NCBI GenBank assembly: GCA_964502465.1
Contig: CAZCWX010000076.1
Coordinates: 16,025 to 80,024 of the forward strand
Direction of reading: 5' to 3'
From: an uncultured Enterobacteriaceae bacterium
GTDB lineage: Bacteria; Desulfobacterota; Binatia; Bin18
DNA length: 64,000 nt
Both the position numbers and the translations under genes were made by a program. Each line of letters opens with the position of its first letter. The stretch's first letter is position 1. Positions 18,250-63,158 of this stretch are shown one piece after another. The notes below the pieces were generated by a model, which did not search any database, was not told the DNA's origin, and worked only from the letters and a program-made list of their open reading frames with translations.

Positions 18250-19536
18250 TCACGTCTTCCGAGCGCCTCTGAACAGCCGTGTATCTCTTTGTCCTTTGTC
18301 AGACCGTGTTCCCTTGTCCCTCCGAGTTTCCTTGCTTTTTGCTTGCGCATGAGGCCGCGATTGAGGTTTGGTGGTCGCAAACAGATACTGGTGCAGAGTG
18401 AGTAACCCACCGAGGTCGGCGGGAAAGGCAGGAAGTATCGGTACTTGGGTAAACGAGGTCTCCGTAGGGAGCGCCCGACGAAAATGTGCGAGTCGCTTTT
18501 CCTCTCCGCGCACCAAGGTTTGGTAAGCGAGAAAATTTTTAGTTAGCCACTGTATCTGCTCGTGATTTTTTGACCTCATATGCAAGATTGTCCGCAGTCG
18601 TGCGGCTAACGTTCCTGCATCCTCGTCCCATGAAGGTTCCGTTCGCCATTCCTCTTGTACTCCGTTCACGACCACACCTTCCAACGGAGCTTTGAGGCGA
18701 TGCAAGTCTGTGAGGAATGCTGCTGTTTCGGCCAGTACCTCCTCTTCTGGGCGGGTAATCAGGACAAAAGCTGTTTCTTTACTCGTTAATAATTGATTGA
18801 CTCGCGTCAGTCGGTGCCCAAAGTCCGCAAGCATTTGCTGCATCGCTGTGAAGAATTCCGAGATGTCGCCCAAGGCTGAAACACCTGTTGCCGCTTCGAT
18901 CTTGCGTAACAGAAAAGCGGCAGTACGGTTCACCGCAGAAAAAGCTACCCAACCGGTTGTCACTGAGGGTTGAATAAACCATTTGCTGACCTGACTATTG
19001 AGAAAGCGCTGCACTCGTTGCGGGGCTTCGAGAAAATCAAGGGCCTGCTTTGTCGGTGGGGTATCGACGACAATCAGATCGTAGATGTCCCGTTGCACTA
19101 GTGTGGCAAGAGTATCAAGAGCCATATACTCGTGTGAACCAGCAAAGGTCCGAGACAATCCCAGGTAAAAACGGTTTGCTAAAATGCGGTTATGGATCTC
19201 CGGTGTTGGTGCGTATCGTCCGACGACTGCATCCCAGGCTCTTTGCTGATCAACAAGCATCGCGGTGAGGGTCCCAGATGGTGAGAGACCATAAGGAGCG
19301 AAAGCCTCTGGGGGCAGTGGATGTTCTTGTTGTCTCGTTTCTTCGAGTCCCAGGCACGTCGCTAATCGTTTAGCCGGGTCAATAGTAAGCACGGCTGTGC
19401 GTTGACCGTGCAGTGCCCCCCAAAGTGCGAGCGCAGCCGCAACCGTCGTTTTTCCTACACCACCACTGCCCACACAGACAACGATGCGATGGCAAGACAC
19501 CAGAGAGGTGAGGTCAGGCGGGGTACGTCTGTTCAT
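18250..19536 (-). CDS. ArsA/Get3-like P-loop ATPase, divergent paralogue 2
   Basis: P-loop GSGGVGKTT and LTIDPAKRL. The ArsA signature is degenerate (VDTPPTKQALDFLEAP). ATG 19536 overlaps the upstream paralogue's stop by 23 nt. Basic C-terminal tail. Confidence 0.8.
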   Translation of the reverse strand: MNRRTPPDLTSLVSCHRIVVCVGSGGVGKTTVAAALALWGALHGQRTAVLTIDPAKRLATCLGLEETRQQEHPLPPEAFAPYGLSPSGTLTAMLVDQQRAWDAVVGRYAPTPEIHNRILANRFYLGLSRTFAGSHEYMALDTLATLVQRDIYDLIVVDTPPTKQALDFLEAPQRVQRFLNSQVSKWFIQPSVTTGWVAFSAVNRTAAFLLRKIEAATGVSALGDISEFFTAMQQMLADFGHRLTRVNQLLTSKETAFVLITRPEEEVLAETAAFLTDLHRLKAPLEGVVVNGVQEEWRTEPSWDEDAGTLAARLRTILHMRSKNHEQIQWLTKNFLAYQTLVRGEEKRLAHFRRALPTETSFTQVPILPAFPADLGGLLTLHQYLFATTKPQSRPHAQAKSKETRRDKGTRSDKGQRDTRLFRGARKT

Positions 19537-20518
19537 CTGACTGTTCCAGCATATAGGAGAGTTGCTCCACTTGAGGAAGGCCAAATTCCTCAGCAAAATA
19601 GAATGGTACGTATACGGTCGGCACCGATAGTGTCTTAAGGCGATGGAGATAGGGAGCCTGAACTTCTTTCAAGGTCGTTTCTGTTTGCGCATGTCTGAGG
19701 ACGTGCTTGGCAAGCTGGCGATCCCGCGATCGAACAGACGCACCTATACGAATCCGCGCTAAGGCAGTGGAGGAAAGAGGGGTATGACGAACACGGTTGA
19801 CGAATAACCGCCCGACAGGCAGGCCTAGATCAGTCCTGAGCTGGTGATACGCTTCGAGAGTTTCGCTCACTGCAAGTTCTTCTGGGACAGTCACCAGATT
19901 CATTACCGTCTTGCTGGGGTCGCTAAAGAGCGCCATAATGCGTTCAGCCTCACGGTGGACCATGCCGCTCCCAAAAGTATCGCGGGCTGCCCGAGGCATG
20001 CGCAGATATTGAAGACTGTGGCCAGTTGCTGGCATATCAACAATAAGGAGGTCCCAACGTGGCTGTAGGGTATCTTTCTCGTGTTTGCGCTCCTCGTACC
20101 AGATTTTTCCCATCGACAGTAATTCCCTGAGTCCTGGCGCTGCCGCCACAAAATACTGGTAGAGTCGGCTCTCAAGAATCATACGCAATAAGCGTTTGAC
20201 TGGAAAAATAAGGCGCAGGTATTCTTCTAGGGCTGTTTGTCCGCTGACTGACAAAACAAAAAGTGTAGGAAAGACTGACTGCGGGTCGTCAGAGGGCTCA
20301 CGGCGGACAGGCACGCCTAGCAACCGGGCGGCGCGCGTATTGCCCTCAAGTTCGATCAGGAGCGTTTTTTTTCCTTGTCGCGAGGCTGCTAAAGCAAGGG
20401 CAGTGGCAAGGATGGTCTTTCCTACTCCACCTTTGCCAACGAGGAAGAGCACACGTTTGGTGAACAATGTGTGAAGAGAAGAAATTGAGCAGCGACGATG
20501 GGGCTGCACCTCTACCAC
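19514..20518 (-). CDS. ArsA/Get3-like P-loop ATPase, paralogue 1
   Basis: P-loop GKGGVGKT and an ArsA-like VDMPATGHSLQYLRMP motif. Candidate GTG 20518 overlaps the fabH stop (GTGGTAG). The ORF track extends to 20557. Confidence 0.85.
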   Translation of the reverse strand: MVEVQPHRRCSISSLHTLFTKRVLFLVGKGGVGKTILATALALAASRQGKKTLLIELEGNTRAARLLGVPVRREPSDDPQSVFPTLFVLSVSGQTALEEYLRLIFPVKRLLRMILESRLYQYFVAAAPGLRELLSMGKIWYEERKHEKDTLQPRWDLLIVDMPATGHSLQYLRMPRAARDTFGSGMVHREAERIMALFSDPSKTVMNLVTVPEELAVSETLEAYHQLRTDLGLPVGRLFVNRVRHTPLSSTALARIRIGASVRSRDRQLAKHVLRHAQTETTLKEVQAPYLHRLKTLSVPTVYVPFYFAEEFGLPQVEQLSYMLEQSDEQTYPA

Positions 20519-21486
20519 CGCACTACCGCAGCTCCCCAGGTCAGACCACCCCCACAAGCGTTTAACACAATAATGTCGTTTTCATGAATCTTGCCGTCAC
20601 GCACGGCTTCATCCAAGGCGATAGGGATAGAAGCTGCTGAGGTATTCCCAAACTGCTGTACGTTGCAATACACCTTCTCCATGCCCAGGTGTAACCGATC
20701 AGCCACCGCTTGGATGATACGAAGATTTGCTTGATGAGGAATCATAAGGTGAACATCAGCAGGGGAAAGTCCGACCCGCTCTAAGGCTCTGCATGCAACA
20801 TCGGAGAGGGCACGGACTGCCACTTTGAACAATTCCGGACCTTTCATTTGGATACCCCATTCTTTTGGATGGAATCCTTCTTGGTCCACAGCTTGACGTT
20901 GCCCTGTGCGGACGTACAACAATTGCCACAGTGCGCCGTTCGATTCGACTACCGTGCTCAGGAGGCCTCTTTCACCGGGTTGGTTGTCCAGCACGACCGC
21001 GCCAGCACCGTCGCCAAAGAGTACACACGTCGTACGATCTTGCCAGTTGACCATCGTGCTCAGTGCATCGGCGCCGACCAAGAGCAGGCGTCCATACTCG
21101 CCACTTTTCATGTAGCTGTGCACAATGGACATGCCATAAACGAACCCCGCGCAGGCCGCATTCACATCAAATGCTGGGATATTCTCTACCCCCAGACGAG
21201 CTTGCAGCAAACAGGCTGTCGAAGGGAAAGCGTAGTCCCCAGATACAGTAGCGACGACAATGGCTTGTAAATCCTGCGCACTCAAGCCAGCTGTATCTAA
21301 GGCTTGTTGACTCGCGACGTGCATCAGGTCCAAGATATCTTCCCCATGCTTCATCACCCGCCGTTCGTGGATTCCAGTCCGGGCGACAATCCAGTCGTGG
21401 TTGGTATTTACCAACTTTTCCAGCTCCGCGTTGGTCAGACGAGTTGCAGGAATGGCGGAGCCAGTGCCGATAATACGTGCGCCCAT
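20512..21486 (-). CDS. fabH: 3-oxoacyl-ACP synthase III
   Basis: Active-site Cys context DVNAACAGFVYG, plus IPHQANLRI and NACGGGLTWGA. ATG 21486 follows GAAAGGG. Confidence 0.95.
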   Translation of the reverse strand: MGARIIGTGSAIPATRLTNAELEKLVNTNHDWIVARTGIHERRVMKHGEDILDLMHVASQQALDTAGLSAQDLQAIVVATVSGDYAFPSTACLLQARLGVENIPAFDVNAACAGFVYGMSIVHSYMKSGEYGRLLLVGADALSTMVNWQDRTTCVLFGDGAGAVVLDNQPGERGLLSTVVESNGALWQLLYVRTGQRQAVDQEGFHPKEWGIQMKGPELFKVAVRALSDVACRALERVGLSPADVHLMIPHQANLRIIQAVADRLHLGMEKVYCNVQQFGNTSAASIPIALDEAVRDGKIHENDIIVLNACGGGLTWGAAVVRW

Positions 21487-30377: not shown

Positions 30378-30830
30378 CTATTCTTCCGCTGCTACGCCAA
30401 TGCGAATGATGAGCGTTCCCTCTTGGTGGGTCTGTCCGGCAATAAAGAGGGCGCCCGGATTGGGGATGCGGAGATAGGTGCTCATAAGAGAGGTCGGGGT
30501 CGAACCTTCCATCAGCATCACTTGCAGTGCGATCTTCTCGTTTACGTATTCCTTGGGAACTACCTGGAGAAAGCGCCCTCCGGGCAGCGAAAAATCAGCC
30601 TGTTTTCCCCACCCCACTTGTCGCCGTTCTTCTTGCACGAGACGATATGAGGAGTAGCGAAAAGCGTTCAATTGGGGTCGGAAGGGCATGAGTCGGTTAT
30701 CAAAGTCTTTCGACGCGTTCGTAGCAAGAACGGTTTCGATCCGAACCTCTACCATTTCGCCAGCGTTGGCCTGAAGCACCCATGCCAATATCGTTGCAAC
30801 GCAGAATAAGACGAGGCAGCGTGTCCTCAT
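30378..30830 (-). CDS. hypothetical secreted protein (third gene of the ECF sigma operon)
   Basis: Signal peptide MRTRCLVLFCVATILAWVLQANA. The start overlaps the anti-sigma stop (ATGA). Confidence 0.6.
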   Translation of the reverse strand: MRTRCLVLFCVATILAWVLQANAGEMVEVRIETVLATNASKDFDNRLMPFRPQLNAFRYSSYRLVQEERRQVGWGKQADFSLPGGRFLQVVPKEYVNEKIALQVMLMEGSTPTSLMSTYLRIPNPGALFIAGQTHQEGTLIIRIGVAAEE

Positions 30831-31369
30831 GGCACCGCTCCACCTCGGTCATCTTCTATCCAGATAACAGGCGAATTGCTTGTCGGTTCGTTCCAGAGTG
30901 CTACAGTGGTGGCTGCTGACAGTGATTCGATTTGGGCTTGATTGTGAGCGGCGACGGCAATGGGAATGGGGGGTTGGGTAACGAACAGTGATTCGACCGA
31001 TGATCGCAGTTGTGGGAAAAACAAGAAAGAGACGAGTAACAGAGCTACCGCAGCTGCGCTAACAGGAACACTGAGTGACCAGTCAGGCCACCACTGCTCG
31101 CGCCACAACTGCAGGCGCACAGACCAAGACGGCTTTGGTACAAGGAGCTTGTTTTCGATCTGCTTCCAGAAACTCGAGAAATCAACCTTCTCGACTTGTG
31201 AGTCAATTTCCTGTAACAGCAGCTCTTGCATGCGATCGAGAGAAGCAAGCCAACGAGTGCACGCGACGCAACTAGCTACATGAGATCGCACTTCTCGCCG
31301 TAACGGTCCATCCAATTCCCCGTCACAGAGCAAGACAGCTAACCGCTCGTATTGTGGGCATTTCATCAT
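30827..31369 (-). CDS. anti-sigma factor (zf-HC2 type, single TM)
   Basis: MMKCPQYERL...HVASCVACTRW putative zinc-finger motif. TM segment VPVSAAAVALLLVSFLFF. Directly downstream of the ECF sigma gene. Start is ATG 31369 or TTG 31390. Confidence 0.75.
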   Translation of the reverse strand: MMKCPQYERLAVLLCDGELDGPLRREVRSHVASCVACTRWLASLDRMQELLLQEIDSQVEKVDFSSFWKQIENKLLVPKPSWSVRLQLWREQWWPDWSLSVPVSAAAVALLLVSFLFFPQLRSSVESLFVTQPPIPIAVAAHNQAQIESLSAATTVALWNEPTSNSPVIWIEDDRGGAVP

Positions 31370-31465
31370 AGCCGAGGAAATAAGGTTCAAGGCCTATAGA
31401 TAAGTGGTGAAGGAAAAAGCGAACAGAAAGGCAATTGCTAATGCACGAGACATAAGCAGGAACCA

Positions 31466-32035
31466 TCAAAGTTCAGAACGCAGGAGCGACTGCAACCGTT
31501 TGCGTGCATAATGAAGCCGGCTCATGACCGTCCCTCGCGAGCATTGTAAGACCTCACTGATCTCTTCGTAAGACAAACCCTCCACTATGCGCAGTAGTAT
31601 GACCGCTTTGTGTGCGGGCGTCAACTCTGCGATAGCTGCACGAATCCTTTCTCCCAACTCTTTGTCCTTTGTTTGTTCGTAGGGGTCCGTGGTTGTTGTA
31701 TCTGGGATCGTATCGATACGGTTGCTATTTCCTTCTTCCTGGTCATCACGTTCCAGTTGTGGTTGCCTGCTTTTTTGGCGTTGGCGATCGATCGCCAAGT
31801 TGACAATAATACGGTACAACCACGTGTAAAAACTCGCTTCTTCCTTGAATTGGTGAATACTGGTAAAAACCTTAGCAAACGCTTCTTGCGCAACCTCTAG
31901 GGCATCTTCACGGTCGTGGAGCATACCAAACGCAATCGCTACGGCCTTACGCTGGTACCGTTCCACCAATTCGCGAAACGCCTGCCGGTCGCCCTCCTTA
32001 CAGCGCTTAACTAATTCCCAGTCGCTTGATTCCAC
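31466..32035 (-). CDS. ECF (sigma-70 family, group 4) RNA polymerase sigma factor
   Basis: Region 2 (FRELVERYQRKAVAIAFGML..DALEVAQEAF) and region 4 HTH (LSYEEISEVLQCSRGTVMSRLHYARKRL). Confidence 0.92.
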   Translation of the reverse strand: MESSDWELVKRCKEGDRQAFRELVERYQRKAVAIAFGMLHDREDALEVAQEAFAKVFTSIHQFKEEASFYTWLYRIIVNLAIDRQRQKSRQPQLERDDQEEGNSNRIDTIPDTTTTDPYEQTKDKELGERIRAAIAELTPAHKAVILLRIVEGLSYEEISEVLQCSRGTVMSRLHYARKRLQSLLRSEL

Positions 32036-41950: not shown

Positions 41951-42117
41951 CGTGTGGTGTTCCTTGTTCGCATTAAGATGCCTCGTGTAGGCTATCGCCT
42001 GGGGTCACATTTGGCTAGAGGGAGGAAGGAAAGCGCAGGACTGGCCTTGACCGAGCTTTCCGCAAGAAAAACAATGTCGAAGGACTAAGTGAGGTGAACG
42101 AACAGGAGGATTTTTGC

Positions 42118-42327
42118 ATGGGGAAGCGGATGATGGTCGACTTCTCTAAGGCCGGTTTTCCTCAGTATGACGAAATAGAAGAGGAGGGCATGGCTAAGCC
42201 CTGTGCCATGGGCCTCCCTTGGGTGAATGTTGATACGTTGAGAACCTTGGATCGCAGACATATCCACAAGACCGGTCCCAAGGGTGAACCAATGGAAGCT
42301 CAGGACACACCAGCGAAGGCGCCCTGA
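42118..42327 (+). CDS. hypothetical small protein
   Basis: ATG 42118 lies 8 nt after AGGAGG. 69 aa with no recognisable motif. Confidence 0.3.
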   Translation: MGKRMMVDFSKAGFPQYDEIEEEGMAKPCAMGLPWVNVDTLRTLDRRHIHKTGPKGEPMEAQDTPAKAP

Positions 42328-42354: not shown

Positions 42355-42744
42355 TTACTCGCGGGTGAAACGCTTTGCTGAACGCGTGCGAGCAACACGT
42401 TCAGCACTAAATAATGGATGCCTATACCTTCGCACACCGTAATAGTAGCAACATAACTCATTGTCTAAGTCGTTATTGAAAGTGCGCTGTTGACCGTCCT
42501 CGAACTGAATACGGATCAAACAGGTGCCGCCGACAAGGACCGAGGTCATTTCTTCTACAACGACCCCTTGACCCCATTCTTCATAATTGAGGTGTGCTAC
42601 TCTATCGCCGAGTCTCAGGTAAAGGCGCTGGTTCTCGTACACGCTATATCCTAGCGGCTTACTGCTGTTTTTTCTGTTGTAGCGGAAAACCAGGAGGCGA
42701 ATCAAGGAGACGAGTATCAAGAAAGAAGAGCGTACCAGGAGCAT
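42355..42744 (-). CDS. hypothetical TM protein with DUF3553-like/Tudor-like C-terminal domain
   Basis: Internal ATG 42744 avoids overlap with the DUF2063 gene. Hydrophobic LLVRSSFLILVSLIRLLVF, then GDRVAHLNYEEWGQGVVVEE, reminiscent of the small GDRV.H..(F/W)G.G.V domain. Family assignment is tentative. Confidence 0.5.
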   Translation of the reverse strand: MLLVRSSFLILVSLIRLLVFRYNRKNSSKPLGYSVYENQRLYLRLGDRVAHLNYEEWGQGVVVEEMTSVLVGGTCLIRIQFEDGQQRTFNNDLDNELCCYYYGVRRYRHPLFSAERVARTRSAKRFTRE

Positions 42745-42812
42745 TGGCCTCGGTACTTGTCTTCCTTGCTTCCTTGCTGCAGCGACCGGGGGCAAAAGAT
42801 TTTTCTCGGTGC

Positions 42813-43613
42813 TTACTGCCGCTGGAGGATACCATCTTCGACCCAACGGATAAGTAGGGCGCCCACCTCTTGTGCTGCGTGTTCGGGGGGTACCAATGAC
42901 TCAACCGTCTCGCAAATCGTTGCGAACGCCTCCCCTGCTTGTACGCATTGAAGTGCGTGTTGCTCGATCGGATCCATGCTGGCCTGGTACACAATAAAAT
43001 TGTCACGCCACACACGCACAGCCGTCTCAACGGGCTGCGCGAGCGTCCAGTCTACTGCCATCTCGTCCCCCAAAATGGACCAGATATCGTGAATCGGCCA
43101 GGCGCTGGTGAGAATCTGACAGGCAGGGATCAAACAAAATTTCAGCTGAGGCCATTCTTCTGGCGGGATGGCCTGTAAATCTGTCATTTGGAGGGGAACA
43201 GCATCACAAGCGTCGAATACCTCCAAGCGTGCCCACTCAAGCCGCGCCAAGTCGGGCAGGAAGGGGAACATTTTCCTGTCTCGGTGCGTACTGAGAAATG
43301 TTGGGAAGGAGCGACCGATATACCGCAAGGAAGGATGAACTGAAGGAGTGCCGGCCAAGTAGACACGGGCGACTGCACGAAAATGTTCAGGACCTAAGGC
43401 GGCAGCGACACGCAGAAAATCCTCACTCAGCGCATCAAGGATCCGGGCGCAGTACATTTGCGCGTAAATATCGATGCGCTCTTCAGCTCCAAGCGGCCCC
43501 CGACCCTGGACAAGCTGGACGAAATCTGGATCAAAACCATACTTACTAGCTGCAGGCGGTGGGGAAGCAATGGCCTGAAAAAATTTTAATTGTAATTCAC
43601 GCAGAGTGAGCAT
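42813..43613 (-). CDS. bufC: DUF2063-family partner protein of the MNIO (BufC/HvfC-like)
   Basis: N-terminus LRELQLKFFQAI....ERIDIYAQMYCARILDALSEDF is typical of DUF2063. Start overlaps the DUF692 stop by 17 nt. Confidence 0.85.
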   Translation of the reverse strand: MLTLRELQLKFFQAIASPPPAASKYGFDPDFVQLVQGRGPLGAEERIDIYAQMYCARILDALSEDFLRVAAALGPEHFRAVARVYLAGTPSVHPSLRYIGRSFPTFLSTHRDRKMFPFLPDLARLEWARLEVFDACDAVPLQMTDLQAIPPEEWPQLKFCLIPACQILTSAWPIHDIWSILGDEMAVDWTLAQPVETAVRVWRDNFIVYQASMDPIEQHALQCVQAGEAFATICETVESLVPPEHAAQEVGALLIRWVEDGILQRQ

Positions 43614-44445
43614 AGTTCATAGTGAGAGATTGGGATGCAAACGCGCGCGCACGTTCGGCTTCGGCGCAGAGCACCTCGAACTCGGGGACCTGATCATCCC
43701 ACTCAATCAGGGTTGAGACTTGCCCGAAGCGGCGCACTGCCAGGCAGTAGAGTTCCCACACTGGCTCAATGACAAGACCATCATGCGTATCTAACAGGTA
43801 TGTCCCTTTGTTACTGTGCCCCGCCAGATGGATCTGGCCAATGCGATCTAGTGGCAGTGCCGTTAGGTATGTTTCTGGCGCAAAGCCGTGATTCCTCGCA
43901 CTGACATAGACATTATTCACGTCGAGGAGAATACCACAGTCAGCCTGTTCGGCAATTTCTGCAAGGAAAACCCACTCGGGCATTGTCGAGTGCGAGAAGG
44001 TCAGATAGCTGGAGACATTTTCGACCAAGATCTGGCGACCGAGCCAGTCCTGCACTTGCCCTATCCGTTCAACAACGTGCCTGAGGGCTTCCTCAGTATA
44101 TGGCAGTGGCAGCAAGTCGTGCGCATAATGTCCACCGACACTCCCCCAACACAGATGATCTGATATCCAGGCAGGTTCGAAGCGCTCCACCAATACGCGC
44201 AGATGACACAGATAGGCTTCATTCAAGGGATCGGTCGAACCTAAAGAGAGGGAAACCCCGTGCAAAACCAGAGGGGCGAGTGAGCGGGCTCGTTCGAGCA
44301 CTGCCAGTGGCCGCCCACCACGGATCATGAAGTTTTCGGAGATCGCTTCAAACCAGTCTACCTGCGCCGTCCCCTCCCAGATACGAGGAAAATGTTTGGT
44401 GCGCAACCCGACGCCATGACCGAGGTAGGGAACTGTACAAGCCAT
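43597..44445 (-). CDS. bufB: DUF692/MbnB-family multinuclear non-haem iron oxidase (BufB/HvfB-like)
   Basis: GVGLRTKHF...VDWFEAISENF...LHGVSLSLGS...ISDHLCW...ENVSSY...LLDVNNVY...IHLAGH are canonical DUF692 (TIM-barrel) blocks. Confidence 0.92.
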   Translation of the reverse strand: MACTVPYLGHGVGLRTKHFPRIWEGTAQVDWFEAISENFMIRGGRPLAVLERARSLAPLVLHGVSLSLGSTDPLNEAYLCHLRVLVERFEPAWISDHLCWGSVGGHYAHDLLPLPYTEEALRHVVERIGQVQDWLGRQILVENVSSYLTFSHSTMPEWVFLAEIAEQADCGILLDVNNVYVSARNHGFAPETYLTALPLDRIGQIHLAGHSNKGTYLLDTHDGLVIEPVWELYCLAVRRFGQVSTLIEWDDQVPEFEVLCAEAERARAFASQSLTMNYAHSA

Positions 44446-44527
44446 ATAGGCGACTGCTTACTTTCTTGAACCAAACGAAACCGAGACCCCGGATGGTGGA
44501 GACCGAGGCCTCGTCTTCTCCTGGCTG

Positions 44528-44794
44528 TTATTGCTTTGCTTCGACGATCTTCCCGCCCTTTGCCTGGCATTCCTCGGCACTCGTTTGCACCCAGCCTTGC
44601 CCTTTACAAGCGTTTTGTCCTTTGCACGAGTTGCCCGCTCCAGCGCAGGCTCCGTGACCCTTACACTCATTAATACCGGCACAGTGGACTGGTTCAGAAC
44701 CGGCTTTATCAGTCGCCCGTGCCACGAGGCTACCGCCCACGATCAGGCCTGCTACCGCGCTTGCAATCATCACCCCTTTTCCGAATGTGTTCAT
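44528..44794 (-). CDS. bufA: Sec-exported Cys-rich RiPP precursor (BufA/HvfA-like, 6 Cys)
   Basis: 88 aa. GGAGG lies 9 nt upstream. Signal peptide MNTFGKGVMIASAVAGLIVGGSLVARA. Core is HCAGINECKGHGACAGAGNSCKGQNACKGQGW...EECQAKGGKI. Confidence 0.85.
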   Translation of the reverse strand: MNTFGKGVMIASAVAGLIVGGSLVARATDKAGSEPVHCAGINECKGHGACAGAGNSCKGQNACKGQGWVQTSAEECQAKGGKIVEAKQ

Positions 44795-44837
44795 TGTCCT
44801 ACCTCCTCTAGGTTATGTGAATGAGTGGATTCCTTTT

Positions 44838-44857
44838 CCAACGCTGATCGGCGTTGG
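44838..44857. promoter_or_regulatory. perfect 7-6-7 inverted repeat upstream of the precursor gene
   Basis: CCAACGC-TGATCG-GCGTTGG lies 44-63 nt upstream of the bufA-like ATG. Could be an operator or a 5'-UTR hairpin. Confidence 0.3.
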
Positions 44858-45097
44858 ATCACCTTGAATCACGCTTGTTTCAACTGCTTGTCAATCCCTT
44901 GCACCTCCTCCTGAGAATAGTATGCAAAATATGATAGGCAGCCTCTCAGACATTCGGGCATGAGAGATTGTTGTCTCTCCTGTCCTCCATTGTCGCATCG
45001 GAGCCTGCTCTCTCGGATGTTCGGATGAAGGAAAAAGTTTCACATGCCATAGCACAACTTCATGCTGTAAGAAGCCCTGGGAGAGGAAATATGACGG

Positions 45098-60806: not shown

Positions 60807-63158
60807 TCAAACGCGGCTGTAGCGCTCGCGCAACCGTTGGCGCACGATTTCCGCGGCCGTGTTGACGATGAAGGTCAGGATAAACAGGAGCAAGGCGGCC
60901 AGGAACAACACGCGGTACAAGGTGCCGCCGTGTGGTGCTTCCGGAATCTCCACGGCGATATTGGCCGACAGGGCACGGAACCCATTGAATGGGCTAAAGT
61001 CCATCACCGGCGTGTTGCCGGTCGCCATCAGCACAATCATCGTCTCGCCTACGGCGCGGCCAAAGCCAATCATGATCGCCGAGAACACCCCAGGACTGGC
61101 GGTTGGCATCACCACCCGCAGCGCAGTCTGCCAGCGGGTTGCCCCGAGCGCCAGCGACCCCGAGATCAGATGTTGCGGGACGTTCGAGAAGGCATCTTCA
61201 CAGATAGTGTAAATAATCGGGATGACGGCAAACCCCATGGCAAAGCCGACGACCATGGAATTACGTGGGTCATAGCGCATGCCGGTCGTGTCGAAGAGCC
61301 ACTGGGGAAAATTGCCATTGAAAAAGAAGGCCTCTATGGTGCCATTGAAGCTCACACAGGCATAGACGGTGAGCACCAGCACTGGGCACAGAACGGCAAG
61401 CTCTGAGCCGGATTTGAGCACGAGACGTATCGAGAGTGGGATCAAGCGCCACAGAAACGCCGCAAGCAGGGTCATCGTTGGCAAAGCAAAAAACATCAGG
61501 AACACCGCCGGAACGATCTGTTCCACCAACGGCGCGAGCCACAGCCCGGCAAAAAACCCCAACACAACGCTGGGCAAGGCCGCCATGATCTCCATCGACG
61601 GTTTAATGAGATTGCGCAGGGTGGGATGGAGAAATTGCGAGGTATAAATCGCCGCACAGATACTGATGGGCACAGCGAGCAACAGCGCGTAAAAGGTGCC
61701 CTTGAGCGTGCCATAGGCGAGTGGGGTGAGACTGAATTTCGCTTCGAAGTCATCAGTCCCGCCGGTGGATTGCCAGGTGTATTCTGGCTGTTCGTAGCCT
61801 TCGTACCACACCTTGCCAAAGAGGGTTTTCAGCGTGATCTCTGGATGTGGGTTGCGCAGCTTCCAGCGGAAGAACTCTCCTTCAGTATTTGTGGCCACAA
61901 GGCCATCTGCCTTCGGCGCAAACGCCAGCAACGGAATGGGGTGGGCATCCGTGGGCAGTTGCAGCAAGGTTTGCTCGGAGGTGCTGTGCTGTAGCATAAC
62001 GGTGCCAGCAGCATCGGCGGACAGGAACCCTTTGTCACGCGGCGACGTGGCAAAGGCAGTGACCGGAGCGCTGTGGGGGAGAAATTGGTGGACCCGGCGG
62101 TACGGAAGTTTGGTCGGGTCTTTTTGGTCTCGTATCTGAAACCAAATATTCACACCACCGGCCGTATCCCCAACGATCAAAGACCGGTCGCCAAGGACCC
62201 ACCCCAGGGCACTAATGCCGGCACCGGGAGCGGTGGCTGCAGCGAAGGTTTCCATAAACTGTGGATGTTCGGGATTGTCGATATGCCAATGCAAGACCTC
62301 ACCAGTTGCCGTGCCAACTAAGAGATTTAATTGAAAGCGATCAAAGGCTACGGCCGTGACATCTGCCGTCAGCTCAGCAGAGAGCTCGAGATGATGCTCT
62401 TGCACTGGCGCCGGTCCAATGAGAGTGCGACGTGCTCGTTGCGCGAGGAAGAACAGTCGGCGTGGACCAGTCAGCGCGGCGGTGGAGGTTTTGCCTCCGT
62501 CCTTTCGATACACGAGCCCGGTGATCGCCTGGCCGGCTGGATCGAGACGAAGCGGCTCTTGTTCGTCCACTGTTGGGATACTCGTGCGTTTCCCCTCTGG
62601 AAAGGTAACGACAAAATTGATGACCAGTGGAATGACCAGACCATCGGTCGTACCAACTGCGACAATGTGGTCAATGCCGTTTGTGTACGCCACGGTTGGG
62701 CTGCGCTCTTGTAAAGCATTGATAGTATAGCGGTGTATGAGGCTATTGTCGTGCAGTGAGAAGAAATCGACAGTTCCAGCGCTGGTCACGACATAGGCAA
62801 TCTCCTGGTATTCTTCTATCCCAACGGCCAGAGGGCGATCACTGGCAGTAGAGAGACCAGGGAGACCTGCAGCCGCCGCCGGCTGATCGGCTGCTTCGAT
62901 GAGCGGCAGCAGATCGATAGTCTCCTGTGGCGTCGCCACCGCTGGCAGGAGCAGGGGCAACACTTCAGCGACAATCACGATAAGGATTGCGACAATGCTG
63001 GCGATCGTGACCAGACCACCGGCAGTGATAAAAACGGTCGCACCTTTATCTGCCAGTTTCTTGCGTTGTACCCGGCTCTTGTCCTCGGCGGTGGACAGGC
63101 GCGGCTCGCCTTGCTGCGGAGCCGCCTCCTGCTCCTCGACCTGCTGCATATCCGACAT
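60807..63158 (-). CDS. pstC: phosphate ABC transporter permease PstC (long form with large periplasmic insert)
   Basis: Permease core with ALGATRWQTALRVVMPTASPG. An insert of about 400 aa after TM1 shows repeated beta-propeller-like ...G..DG.V..W units. Confidence 0.9.
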   Translation of the reverse strand: MSDMQQVEEQEAAPQQGEPRLSTAEDKSRVQRKKLADKGATVFITAGGLVTIASIVAILIVIVAEVLPLLLPAVATPQETIDLLPLIEAADQPAAAAGLPGLSTASDRPLAVGIEEYQEIAYVVTSAGTVDFFSLHDNSLIHRYTINALQERSPTVAYTNGIDHIVAVGTTDGLVIPLVINFVVTFPEGKRTSIPTVDEQEPLRLDPAGQAITGLVYRKDGGKTSTAALTGPRRLFFLAQRARRTLIGPAPVQEHHLELSAELTADVTAVAFDRFQLNLLVGTATGEVLHWHIDNPEHPQFMETFAAATAPGAGISALGWVLGDRSLIVGDTAGGVNIWFQIRDQKDPTKLPYRRVHQFLPHSAPVTAFATSPRDKGFLSADAAGTVMLQHSTSEQTLLQLPTDAHPIPLLAFAPKADGLVATNTEGEFFRWKLRNPHPEITLKTLFGKVWYEGYEQPEYTWQSTGGTDDFEAKFSLTPLAYGTLKGTFYALLLAVPISICAAIYTSQFLHPTLRNLIKPSMEIMAALPSVVLGFFAGLWLAPLVEQIVPAVFLMFFALPTMTLLAAFLWRLIPLSIRLVLKSGSELAVLCPVLVLTVYACVSFNGTIEAFFFNGNFPQWLFDTTGMRYDPRNSMVVGFAMGFAVIPIIYTICEDAFSNVPQHLISGSLALGATRWQTALRVVMPTASPGVFSAIMIGFGRAVGETMIVLMATGNTPVMDFSPFNGFRALSANIAVEIPEAPHGGTLYRVLFLAALLLFILTFIVNTAAEIVRQRLRERYSRV

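Follow-up and report, generated by a model that had tools for sequence, protein, structure and literature searches.

The bufferin-2 (Buf2) system of Caulobacter vibrioides is the closest described relative of the locus reported here. Its operon is copper-induced and its product exhibits a mass shift of -18 Da (-4.03 Da per central Cys, with CysI-CysVI unmodified), the four central Cys being converted to 5-thiooxazoles and the outer two held in a disulfide (PMC11626156). The order of the bufABC genes is strictly kept, and thousands of Buf2 members have been described (PMC12452194). BufB1 and BufC1 together modify BufA1 in vitro (PMC11626156), whilst in HvfBC, according to the literature, the mixed-valent diiron state depends on the partner protein. 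Bufferins have since been confirmed to carry 5-thiooxazoles, and the finding has been carried over to other MNIO-PME1 clusters, with oxazolin reassigned to this chemistry too (PMC13097082; 10.64898/2025.12.15.693703).

The locus described here is very probably a chromosomal bufA2-bufB-bufC operon for a bufferin-2 type ribosomal peptide metallophore (a 'captophorin'), carried by what is probably a Binatia bacterium. We assign it to Buf2 because the BufA2 and BufB equivalog models were both passed and the competing models of multinuclear non-haem iron oxidases (MNIOs) all fell below their cut-offs. It is a standard member of this already described family and not a new system.

Layout of the operon and its surroundings

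The initial annotation of the window (the whole 64-kb stretch of DNA that was analysed) had proposed a minus-strand operon running from 44794 to 42813 with ORFs of 88, 282 and 266 aa, and the ORF list confirmed all of them: three minus-strand ORFs, each with an ATG start, are present at 44528..44794, 43597..44445 and 42813..43613, in the order bufA2-bufB-bufC and with DoxX absent. The same A-B-C order is kept in related loci and across distant taxa. The architecture had been described as uncharacterised, yet three genes without DoxX is the arrangement of the characterised C. vibrioides buf2ABC (PMC11626156). The lower limit first given for the locus (42355) was also too generous, as positions 42355..42642 hold a separate 95-aa DUF3553-like gene, which lies within the lower 460 bases of that range and is unrelated to the operon. 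An ORF at 42355..42846, considered as a fourth operon member, is really this 95-aa gene, and it was rejected because the DUF3553 gene accompanies ileS-lspA with or without bufABC.

The operon is chromosomal and its setting is purely housekeeping. The named relatives point to Binatia as the probable source lineage, and the best BufB match among GTDB species representatives shares 77% identity. At this chromosomal site some Binatia genomes carry the cassette and others lack it. A Pfam scan of 49 ORFs from the window revealed no DoxX, copper-resistance or copper-handling, or SigF/NrsF genes, and DoxX was likewise not found beside bufC; the sole ECF sigma and zf-HC2 anti-sigma pair in the window lies 12.5 kb off.

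The precursor, the oxidase and the partner protein

The first gene, bufA2 (44528..44794, minus strand), encodes an 88-aa bufferin-2 precursor that matched the NCBIfam BufA2 model NF050166 at 85.6 bits (cut-off 60, E 2e-24) over profile positions 2-78 of 79, and 453 homologues were found. PF10048 (DUF2282) gave no match to the precursor at E<=1. Judged by eye from the sequence and its conservation, the signal peptide (residues 1-27, nt 44714..44794, minus strand) is of Sec type: K6 lies in the n-region, a hydrophobic stretch spans residues 8-24 and A25-R-A27 precedes T28, with A25 and A27 invariant or nearly so in an alignment of 39 sequences sharing 58-78% identity, whilst by inspection the N-terminus contains neither a lipobox nor a twin-arginine motif. 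The 61-residue core (nt 44531..44713, minus strand) contains CKG motifs, 11 Gly, 7 Lys and six Cys (C38, C44, C50, C57, C63 and C76), and all six Cys are invariant in the same alignment. The Sec-type signal peptide, with its AxA at 25-27, and the Gly/Lys-rich six-Cys core thus agree with the first description of this ORF. AlphaFold2 modelled the precursor with low confidence (pLDDT 58), and the model was left unused for fold search and disulfide geometry.

The second gene, bufB (43597..44445, minus strand), encodes a 282-aa MNIO (formerly DUF692), in which the canonical DUF692/MbnB-family blocks had been recognised from the start; Pfam PF05114 (MbnB_TglH_ChrH) matched it end to end (E 1e-107). 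The model for the MNIO bufferin maturase BufB (NCBIfam NF050167) was passed at 376.9 bits (cut-off 310), and every rival MNIO model stayed under its cut-off, with ApyH at 98.6 against 400, MbnB at 54.6 against 325, ChrH at 42.5 against 600 and the next-best, HvfB, weighed below. To read the iron ligands we took the list reported for MbnB (H54, H90, E133, D163, N166, H192, D208, H210 and E239; PMC9060507) and followed it through alignments with 3BWW and Vibrio MbnB 7DZ9. The nine equivalents in bufB (H62, H97, E142, D175, N178, H206, D219, H221 and E248) fall on the ligand motifs of both structures, and their spacing (35, 45, 33, 3, 28, 13, 2, 27) closely resembles that of MbnB (36, 43, 30, 3, 26, 16, 2, 29). 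All nine are invariant among 20 homologues, so no conserved ligand is missing from the alignment.

The third gene, bufC (42813..43613, minus strand), encodes a 266-aa MNIO partner with an N-terminal DUF2063 and a C-terminal RRE-like domain; PME-type 1 MNIO partners have about 250-260 residues. Residues 7-107 matched PF09836 (DUF2063) at 62.4 bits (cut-off 27.2, E 4.9e-17). Its start at 43613 lies inside bufB, the stop codon of which has its last base at 43597, giving the 17-nt overlap that had been noted initially; we consider the overlap real because the bufC N-terminus, MLTLRELQ, agrees with the consensus start of 47 homologues. A single-sequence search of bufC against the PDB gave no match, and its relatives came from a fold search: Foldseek with an AlphaFold2 model of pLDDT 92.2 recovered TglI (8hi7_A, E 3e-6) and NGO1945 (3dee, E 2e-5, TM 0.74 on the target), with RRE domains (TbiB1) as weak matches. 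From this model, bufC is confidently predicted to have a two-domain fold, DUF2063 plus RRE-like, resembling TglI and NGO1945.

The profile searches that the initial annotation had proposed for the precursor, the oxidase and the DUF2063 protein were therefore all passed, and together with the invariant iron ligands they support its reading of a periplasmic metal-chelating RiPP locus. Its expectation that the genes would be labelled as three hypothetical proteins is out of date, because two of the three proteins now receive a name from NCBI models and relatives from Binatia MAGs are already called BufA2. Nothing that we found contradicts membership of the family.

Candidate control elements

A Shine-Dalgarno sequence, GGAGG, can be read at 44802..44806 (minus strand), 7 nt upstream of the bufA2 ATG, and is kept in the related loci L004-L007, in line with the strong ribosome-binding site claimed for this ORF. 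Downstream of the precursor gene, RNA folding placed a stem-loop followed by a U-rich stretch in the bufA2-bufB spacer (44469..44526, minus strand), with a folding energy of -32.4 kcal/mol (z -3.9) that none of 200 shuffles equalled. The bufA-bufB spacers of related loci do not align in sequence and were folded one by one: those of L004 and L025 contain a canonical terminator hairpin and U run at the same place, those of L005 and L006 contain other strong hairpins, and that of L007 contains none. The stem-loop is therefore a candidate partial terminator or attenuator, which may give a surplus of precursor transcript.

Further upstream, about 220 nt before bufA2, lies a candidate ECF-type promoter motif, TGAAAC-N16-ACATCC (45015..45042, minus strand), the single occurrence of which in the 64-kb window is by itself not above chance. 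A TGAAAC-N16-RCATYY arrangement also occurs upstream of bufA2 in L004, L005 and L025, and this kept position leads us to propose, with low confidence, an ECF-type promoter; the upstream region of the ECF sigma/zf-HC2 pair was without the motif. A 7-bp inverted repeat, CCAACGC-N6-GCGTTGG, can be read at 44838..44857 (minus strand), 44-63 nt before the bufA2 ATG, and may serve as an operator or form a hairpin in the 5'-UTR. In L004, L005 and L025 the corresponding position is taken by a small inverted repeat of another sequence, GCGAG...CTCGC. A scan for sigma-70 promoters and terminators yielded nothing convincing, and Rfam gave no matches at gathering thresholds in the whole window or the upstream region. 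One sub-threshold CRISPR-DR match in Rfam was taken as chance.

Proposed function and alternative explanations

By homology with the described systems, the operon would work as follows. The BufA2 precursor would be made in excess, as its strong ribosome-binding site and the hairpin that follows bufA2 suggest. In the cytoplasm a BufB-BufC complex would work on this precursor, with the RRE-like domain of BufC recruiting it, as in homologues, and with BufC required for the active mixed-valent iron cofactor in BufB, a role shown for homologues only. With O2, the complex would carry out a four-electron oxidation of each central Cys to a 5-thiooxazole, and by analogy with Caulobacter Buf2 the oxidised residues would be C44, C50, C57 and C63. 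The modified peptide would then enter the periplasm via its Sec signal peptide, with cleavage predicted after A27, where C38 and C76 would pair in a disulfide and the 61-residue product would bind excess copper through its thiooxazoles. The C38-C76 disulfide is proposed by analogy alone because the precursor model was of low confidence. The initial annotation had allowed for either thiooxazole or oxazolone/thioamide groups, and more recent studies ascribe 5-thiooxazoles, rather than the latter pair, to bufferins (PMC13097082; 10.64898/2025.12.15.693703).

Copper specificity and regulation, both carried over by homology, are without local support, because the window contains no copper genes, DoxX or NrsF/SigF. 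The same 64 kb of housekeeping context, with neither copper genes nor a SigF/NrsF pair, would also suit a genuine Buf2-type system with a role other than copper buffering, either for another thiophilic metal or in housekeeping metal or redox homeostasis, and the patchy presence among Binatia genomes is what an accessory, niche-dependent trait would show. A metal other than copper is conceivable, because some bufferins occur in mercury-resistance contexts, and MerC-Buf2 fusions in mercury clusters make other metals possible (PMC12452194). However, all bufferins and captophorins tested so far bind copper and protect against it (PMC11626156, PMC13097082), the precursor closely fits the BufA2 equivalog model, and Buf2 clusters are usually without linked sigma/anti-sigma genes, so that their absence here says little; we therefore regard a non-copper role as rather unlikely.

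A bolder and distinctly improbable proposal is that the Binatia Buf2 cassette is an insert of variable presence, lying between moeA and the DUF3553-ileS block, with its own control logic, comprising the ECF-like TGAAAC-N16-RCATYY promoter, the 5'-UTR inverted repeat and the attenuator hairpin after the precursor, and that it serves a non-copper metal or stress. If true, the peptide would be a version of a known one that differs in both its regulation and its use.

The initial annotation had placed the locus in a joint bufferin/HvfABC type, of which the Buf2 part stands and the HvfABC part does not. Membership of the HvfABC/oxazolin (EGKCG) type might be argued from the next-best NCBIfam matches, HvfB (245 bits) and HvfC (NF050145, the only NCBIfam partner model available, 68.6 bits), and from the MNIOs of both groups, which fall in one large sequence cluster (PMC12452194). 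Both models nevertheless remained under their curated cut-offs (360 and 142), whereas BufB and BufA2 passed theirs, and the 88-aa precursor contains no EGKCG repeat but six conserved Cys and C-K-G motifs as in the 'Cys-Lys' group. With neither the HvfB nor the HvfC model reaching its cut-off and no repeats present, this membership is already refuted, and we hold it to be very improbable. That the three ORFs are unrelated, with DUF2063 a DNA-binding regulator, DUF692 a TIM-barrel sugar or AP-endonuclease-like enzyme and the small ORF a chance secreted peptide, draws on older annotations of relatives as 'putative DNA-binding domain-containing protein' and on a weak, sub-cut-off AP_endonuc_2 match to bufB (E 1e-4), but is effectively refuted already, and has next to no probability, given the strict A-B-C order across distant taxa, the 17-nt overlap of bufB and bufC, the match of the partner fold to the MNIO partner TglI and the modification of BufA1 in vitro by BufB1 plus BufC1 (PMC11626156).

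The preferred reading, a Buf2 operon with a predicted copper-buffering role, adds one more member to a family with thousands known and carries little weight beyond correct annotation. It would place a Buf2 copper-buffering cassette in the housekeeping neighbourhood of an uncultured lineage from soil or groundwater that probably belongs to Binatia. For work on bufferin operon expression outside Pseudomonadota, the conserved hairpin that follows bufA2 and the upstream motif shared with related loci could be modestly helpful.

Comparison with described systems

Bufferin 2 of C. vibrioides (buf2ABC, CCNA_03001-02999; BUF_6/12Cys; NF050166/NF050167) has the same precursor-MNIO-DUF2063 order without DoxX, and the two precursors are alike in their Sec signal peptide, 61-residue core, six conserved Cys and C-K-G motifs. 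They differ in phylum, which is probably Binatota here whereas Caulobacter belongs to the Alphaproteobacteria, and the locus described here, known from its sequence, is without a linked or identifiable SigF/NrsF. The bufA-bufB hairpin and the ECF-like upstream motif are features of the locus here.

The bufferin 1 or gig-like operons of C. vibrioides and Cupriavidus metallidurans (bufABCD) belong to the same MNIO subfamily cluster and have a DUF2063 partner and a Sec-exported precursor in common with our locus, as well as, by analogy, the thiooxazole chemistry and a copper role. Buf1 precursors, however, bear the DUF2282 signature with four Cys, and DoxX is usual in their clusters and sigma/NrsF genes are frequent, whereas the locus here exhibits six Cys, no PF10048 match and no DoxX.

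More distant are oxazolin/HvfABC of Haemophilus influenzae and the other EGKCG captophorins (fontiphorin, gonophorin and bulbicupramide), which also combine an MNIO, a PME-type-1 partner and a signal-peptide precursor, and with which 5-thiooxazoles and copper binding would be shared by analogy (PMC13097082; PMC11252979). EGKCG repeats make up their precursors (the Lys-Cys group), and their HvfB/HvfC models are not passed by our locus. Methanobactin (MbnABC) draws on the same enzyme superfamily and iron-ligand set, and in both systems Cys would, by analogy, be modified to a copper ligand. Here the MbnB model falls far short of its cut-off and the partner is a DUF2063 protein rather than MbnC; the methanobactin precursor has a leader peptide without a Sec signal, and its product, which bears oxazolone/thioamide groups, leaves the cell as a chalkophore that serves copper uptake.

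Family assignment

The initial annotation read 42355-44857 as a bufferin/HvfABC-type metallophore RiPP locus and proposed profile-HMM searches of its three ORFs, and in these searches the BufA2, BufB and DUF2063 models were all passed. The precursor scored 85.6 bits (cut-off 60) against NF050166, the BufA2 periplasmic bufferin-type metallophore model, the oxidase scored 376.9 bits (cut-off 310) against NF050167, the MNIO bufferin maturase model, and aligned with Pfam PF05114 over its full length (E 1e-107), whilst the third ORF scored 62.4 bits (cut-off 27.2) against PF09836 (DUF2063). An Hvf/oxazolin-type identity is ruled out, as the oxidase failed HvfB (245 bits, cut-off 360) and the third ORF failed HvfC (68.6 bits, cut-off 142); a methanobactin-type identity is ruled out by the MbnB score of the oxidase (54.6 bits, cut-off 325), and a Buf1-type identity by the profile searches. 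The oxidase also failed ApyH (98.6 bits, cut-off 400) and ChrH (42.5 bits, cut-off 600). Judged by profile scores against cut-offs, the locus is assigned to the Buf2 type, not to the Hvf/oxazolin, Buf1 or methanobactin types: the bufferin half of the original label stands and the HvfABC half falls.

Operon structure and signals

The three minus-strand ORFs lie where they had been placed, bufA2 at 44528..44794 (88 aa), bufB at 43597..44445 (282 aa) and bufC at 42813..43613 (266 aa) in the ORF list, with the bufC start 17 nt inside bufB. On three near-identical metagenome contigs the genes are called from these same starts, and the BufC N-terminus (MLTLRELQ...) agrees with the consensus start of 47 homologues. 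The strong Shine-Dalgarno described for bufA2 is a GGAGG 7 nt 5' of the ATG, kept in relatives. Related loci from genomes and metagenomes keep the A-B-C order, likewise reported as conserved in the literature (PMC12452194).

The 82 nt bufA2-bufB spacer holds a strong hairpin at 44469..44526 (-; RNA fold -32.4 kcal/mol, z -3.9). At the same position, two related loci carry a textbook, canonical intrinsic terminator with a U run (L004 5907..6000; L025 3168..3262), the related loci L005 and L006 form different but likewise strong hairpins, and folding gave no hairpin in the spacer of a further relative, L007. The hairpin sequence differs in each relative. We infer that the hairpin is probably an attenuator which makes transcripts of the precursor more abundant than those of the enzymes.

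Upstream of bufA2, a TGAAAC-N16-RCATYY motif at 45015..45042 (-) is shared with L004 (5565), L025 (2825) and L005 (about 1375), and is a candidate promoter resembling those of the ECF type. In the window the motif and the ATG are about 220 nt apart, versus 60-70 nt in the relatives, with roughly 150 extra bases between motif and Shine-Dalgarno; a 7-bp inverted repeat at 44838..44857 also lies upstream of bufA2. An Rfam search over the whole window and the upstream region matched no family at gathering thresholds. A gene pair at 30827..32035 (-), 12.5 kb from the operon, encodes a 189-aa ECF sigma factor and, after it, a 187-aa zf-HC2 anti-sigma factor; the TGAAAC motif is absent upstream of this pair, and therefore no link of the pair to buf was shown.

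Precursor, oxidase and partner protein

As claimed, the 88-aa product reads as a Sec-type signal peptide (K6, hydrophobic 8-24, A25-R-A27, then T28) before a Gly/Lys-rich six-Cys core, here of 61 residues with 11 Gly, 7 Lys and 6 Cys; on sequence inspection it has neither a lipobox nor a twin-arginine motif. A search of 5.8 billion proteins returned 453 relatives, most of them 85-92 aa long and 55-78% identical, at least one of which, in a Candidatus Binatia MAG, already carries the name BufA2. In a 39-sequence alignment C38, C44, C50, C57, C63 and C76 are invariant; the K-G residues that follow C44 and C63, together with A25 in the AxA cleavage site, are likewise invariant, and the C-K-G motifs place the precursor in the 'Cys-Lys' group of PMC13097082. 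In a low-confidence AlphaFold2 model (pLDDT 58), C38 belongs to the first strand and C76 to a short helix, which agrees with the description of bufferins.

The iron ligands of MbnB are H54, H90, E133, D163, N166, H192, D208, H210 and E239 (PMC9060507). In alignments to Vibrio MbnB 7DZ9 and to 3BWW, a homologue from Haemophilus somnus, BufB H62, H97, E142, D175, N178, H206, D219, H221 and E248 fall on the ligand motifs with spacing close to that of MbnB, and all nine are invariant in 20 of 20 homologues from genome loci. The conserved ligands expected of the DUF692 ORF are thus all present and, with the BufA2 and BufB models passed and the gene order conserved, the metallophore RiPP reading is supported.

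BufB-like MNIOs (58-59% identical) also occur at L009 and L010 (5597..5854), loci in an Aquirickettsiella MAG and a MAG labelled 'archaeon', where an 85-aa lipoprotein-type precursor with eight Cys and a His/Arg-rich tail precedes the MNIO and has no match to BufA2; the near-identity of L009 and L010 suggests that 'archaeon' arose through faulty binning or labelling.

A single-sequence PDB search with BufC gave no match. Its AlphaFold2 model, for which 48 sequences were used, is confident (pLDDT 92.2, pTM 0.88) and best matches TglI, which partners the MNIO TglH (8hi7_A, E 3e-6), as well as NGO1945 (3dee, E 2e-5, TM 0.74 on target), with weak C-terminal matches to RRE domains such as TbiB1. 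The modelled architecture is DUF2063 plus RRE-type, termed PME-type 1 (PMC12452194).

Boundaries and neighbourhood

The range first given, from 42355, was too wide: its lower 460 bases lie outside the operon and hold a separate DUF3553-like gene (42355..42642, -, 95 aa, GTG start). The 386 homologues of its protein come from Binatia-like metagenomes and are for the most part 95 aa long; those in Binatia are named DUF3553 by NCBI, and Pfam hints at nothing beyond a Tudor-like PcrA/UvrD match (E 0.3). A small ORF at 42094..42327 (+), MGKRMMVDFSKAGFPQYDEIEEEGMAKP..., is convergent to it, and similar ORFs of roughly 65-92 aa occupy the same place, between DUF3553 and ileS or lspA, in L005 and in the related loci L024 and L027. 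In these last two, which lack buf genes, the DUF3553-like gene is accompanied by the small convergent ORF and ileS-lspA. L025, L005 and L004 have bufABC between moeA and the DUF3553-like gene, which thus keeps its place beside ileS-lspA with or without bufABC. From this comparison of gene content, bufABC is judged to be a cassette, present in some genomes and absent from others, within a conserved housekeeping neighbourhood.

Elsewhere the window carries housekeeping genes (ATP synthase, obg, proBA, nadD, rsfS, fabHF, ileS, lspA, moeA, purE, murF, CCA-adding enzyme, prfC, pst-phoU-phoBR), with no DoxX, copper genes or NrsF among 49 ORFs of the window scanned against Pfam. Next to fabH and fabF lie two neighbouring genes for ArsA/GET3-like ATPases of 448 and 347 aa (18250..20557, -), and the pstS-pstC-pstA-pstB-phoU-phoB-phoR block includes a 783-aa protein (60807..63158, -) that has a PstC-like ABC permease domain (BPD_transp_1) and whose N-terminal half gives weak beta-propeller/WD40-like matches; phosphate permeases are not usually built this way. 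Named relatives point to Candidatus Binatia, or 'Deltaproteobacteria' in older MAG labels.

Proposed function and comparison with known systems

Family membership, iron ligands, partner fold and gene order are established by the present analysis; modified residues, chemistry, metal and regulation are ascribed by homology. In the cytoplasm, BufB-BufC would oxidise C44, C50, C57 and C63 of BufA2 to 5-thiooxazoles; Sec would next export the modified peptide, with the signal peptide cut after A27; a disulfide would join C38 and C76, and the 61-residue product would chelate excess periplasmic copper.

Later work has confirmed 5-thiooxazoles in bufferins (10.64898/2025.12.15.693703), reassigned oxazolin to this chemistry and extended its installation to tens of thousands of MNIO-PME1 clusters, named captophorins (PMC13097082); in HvfBC the partner protein is required for the active mixed-valent diiron state (10.64898/2026.07.17.739211). 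Thousands of Buf2 members are known, 90% with six Cys (PMC12452194). Within this well-described family the locus is an ordinary member, and the expectation that annotation would give 'three hypothetical proteins' is out of date, since curated models already name the family. What is new is mild: a probable Binatia host, the cassette-like presence/absence, the hairpin that follows the precursor gene and the upstream motif common to related loci.

The architecture, earlier called uncharacterised, has been overtaken by work on Caulobacter vibrioides buf2ABC, an operon without DoxX whose BufA2 carries a Sec signal peptide ahead of a six-Cys core of 61 residues (PMC11626156). Its product shows a mass shift of -18 Da (-16 Da once reduced), with -4.03 Da per central Cys, CysI and CysVI unmodified and probably joined by a disulfide, and an absorbance maximum near 305 nm; it is copper-induced and protects against copper (PMC11626156). 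The two loci are alike in their three genes, lack of DoxX, Sec signal and 61-residue six-Cys core.
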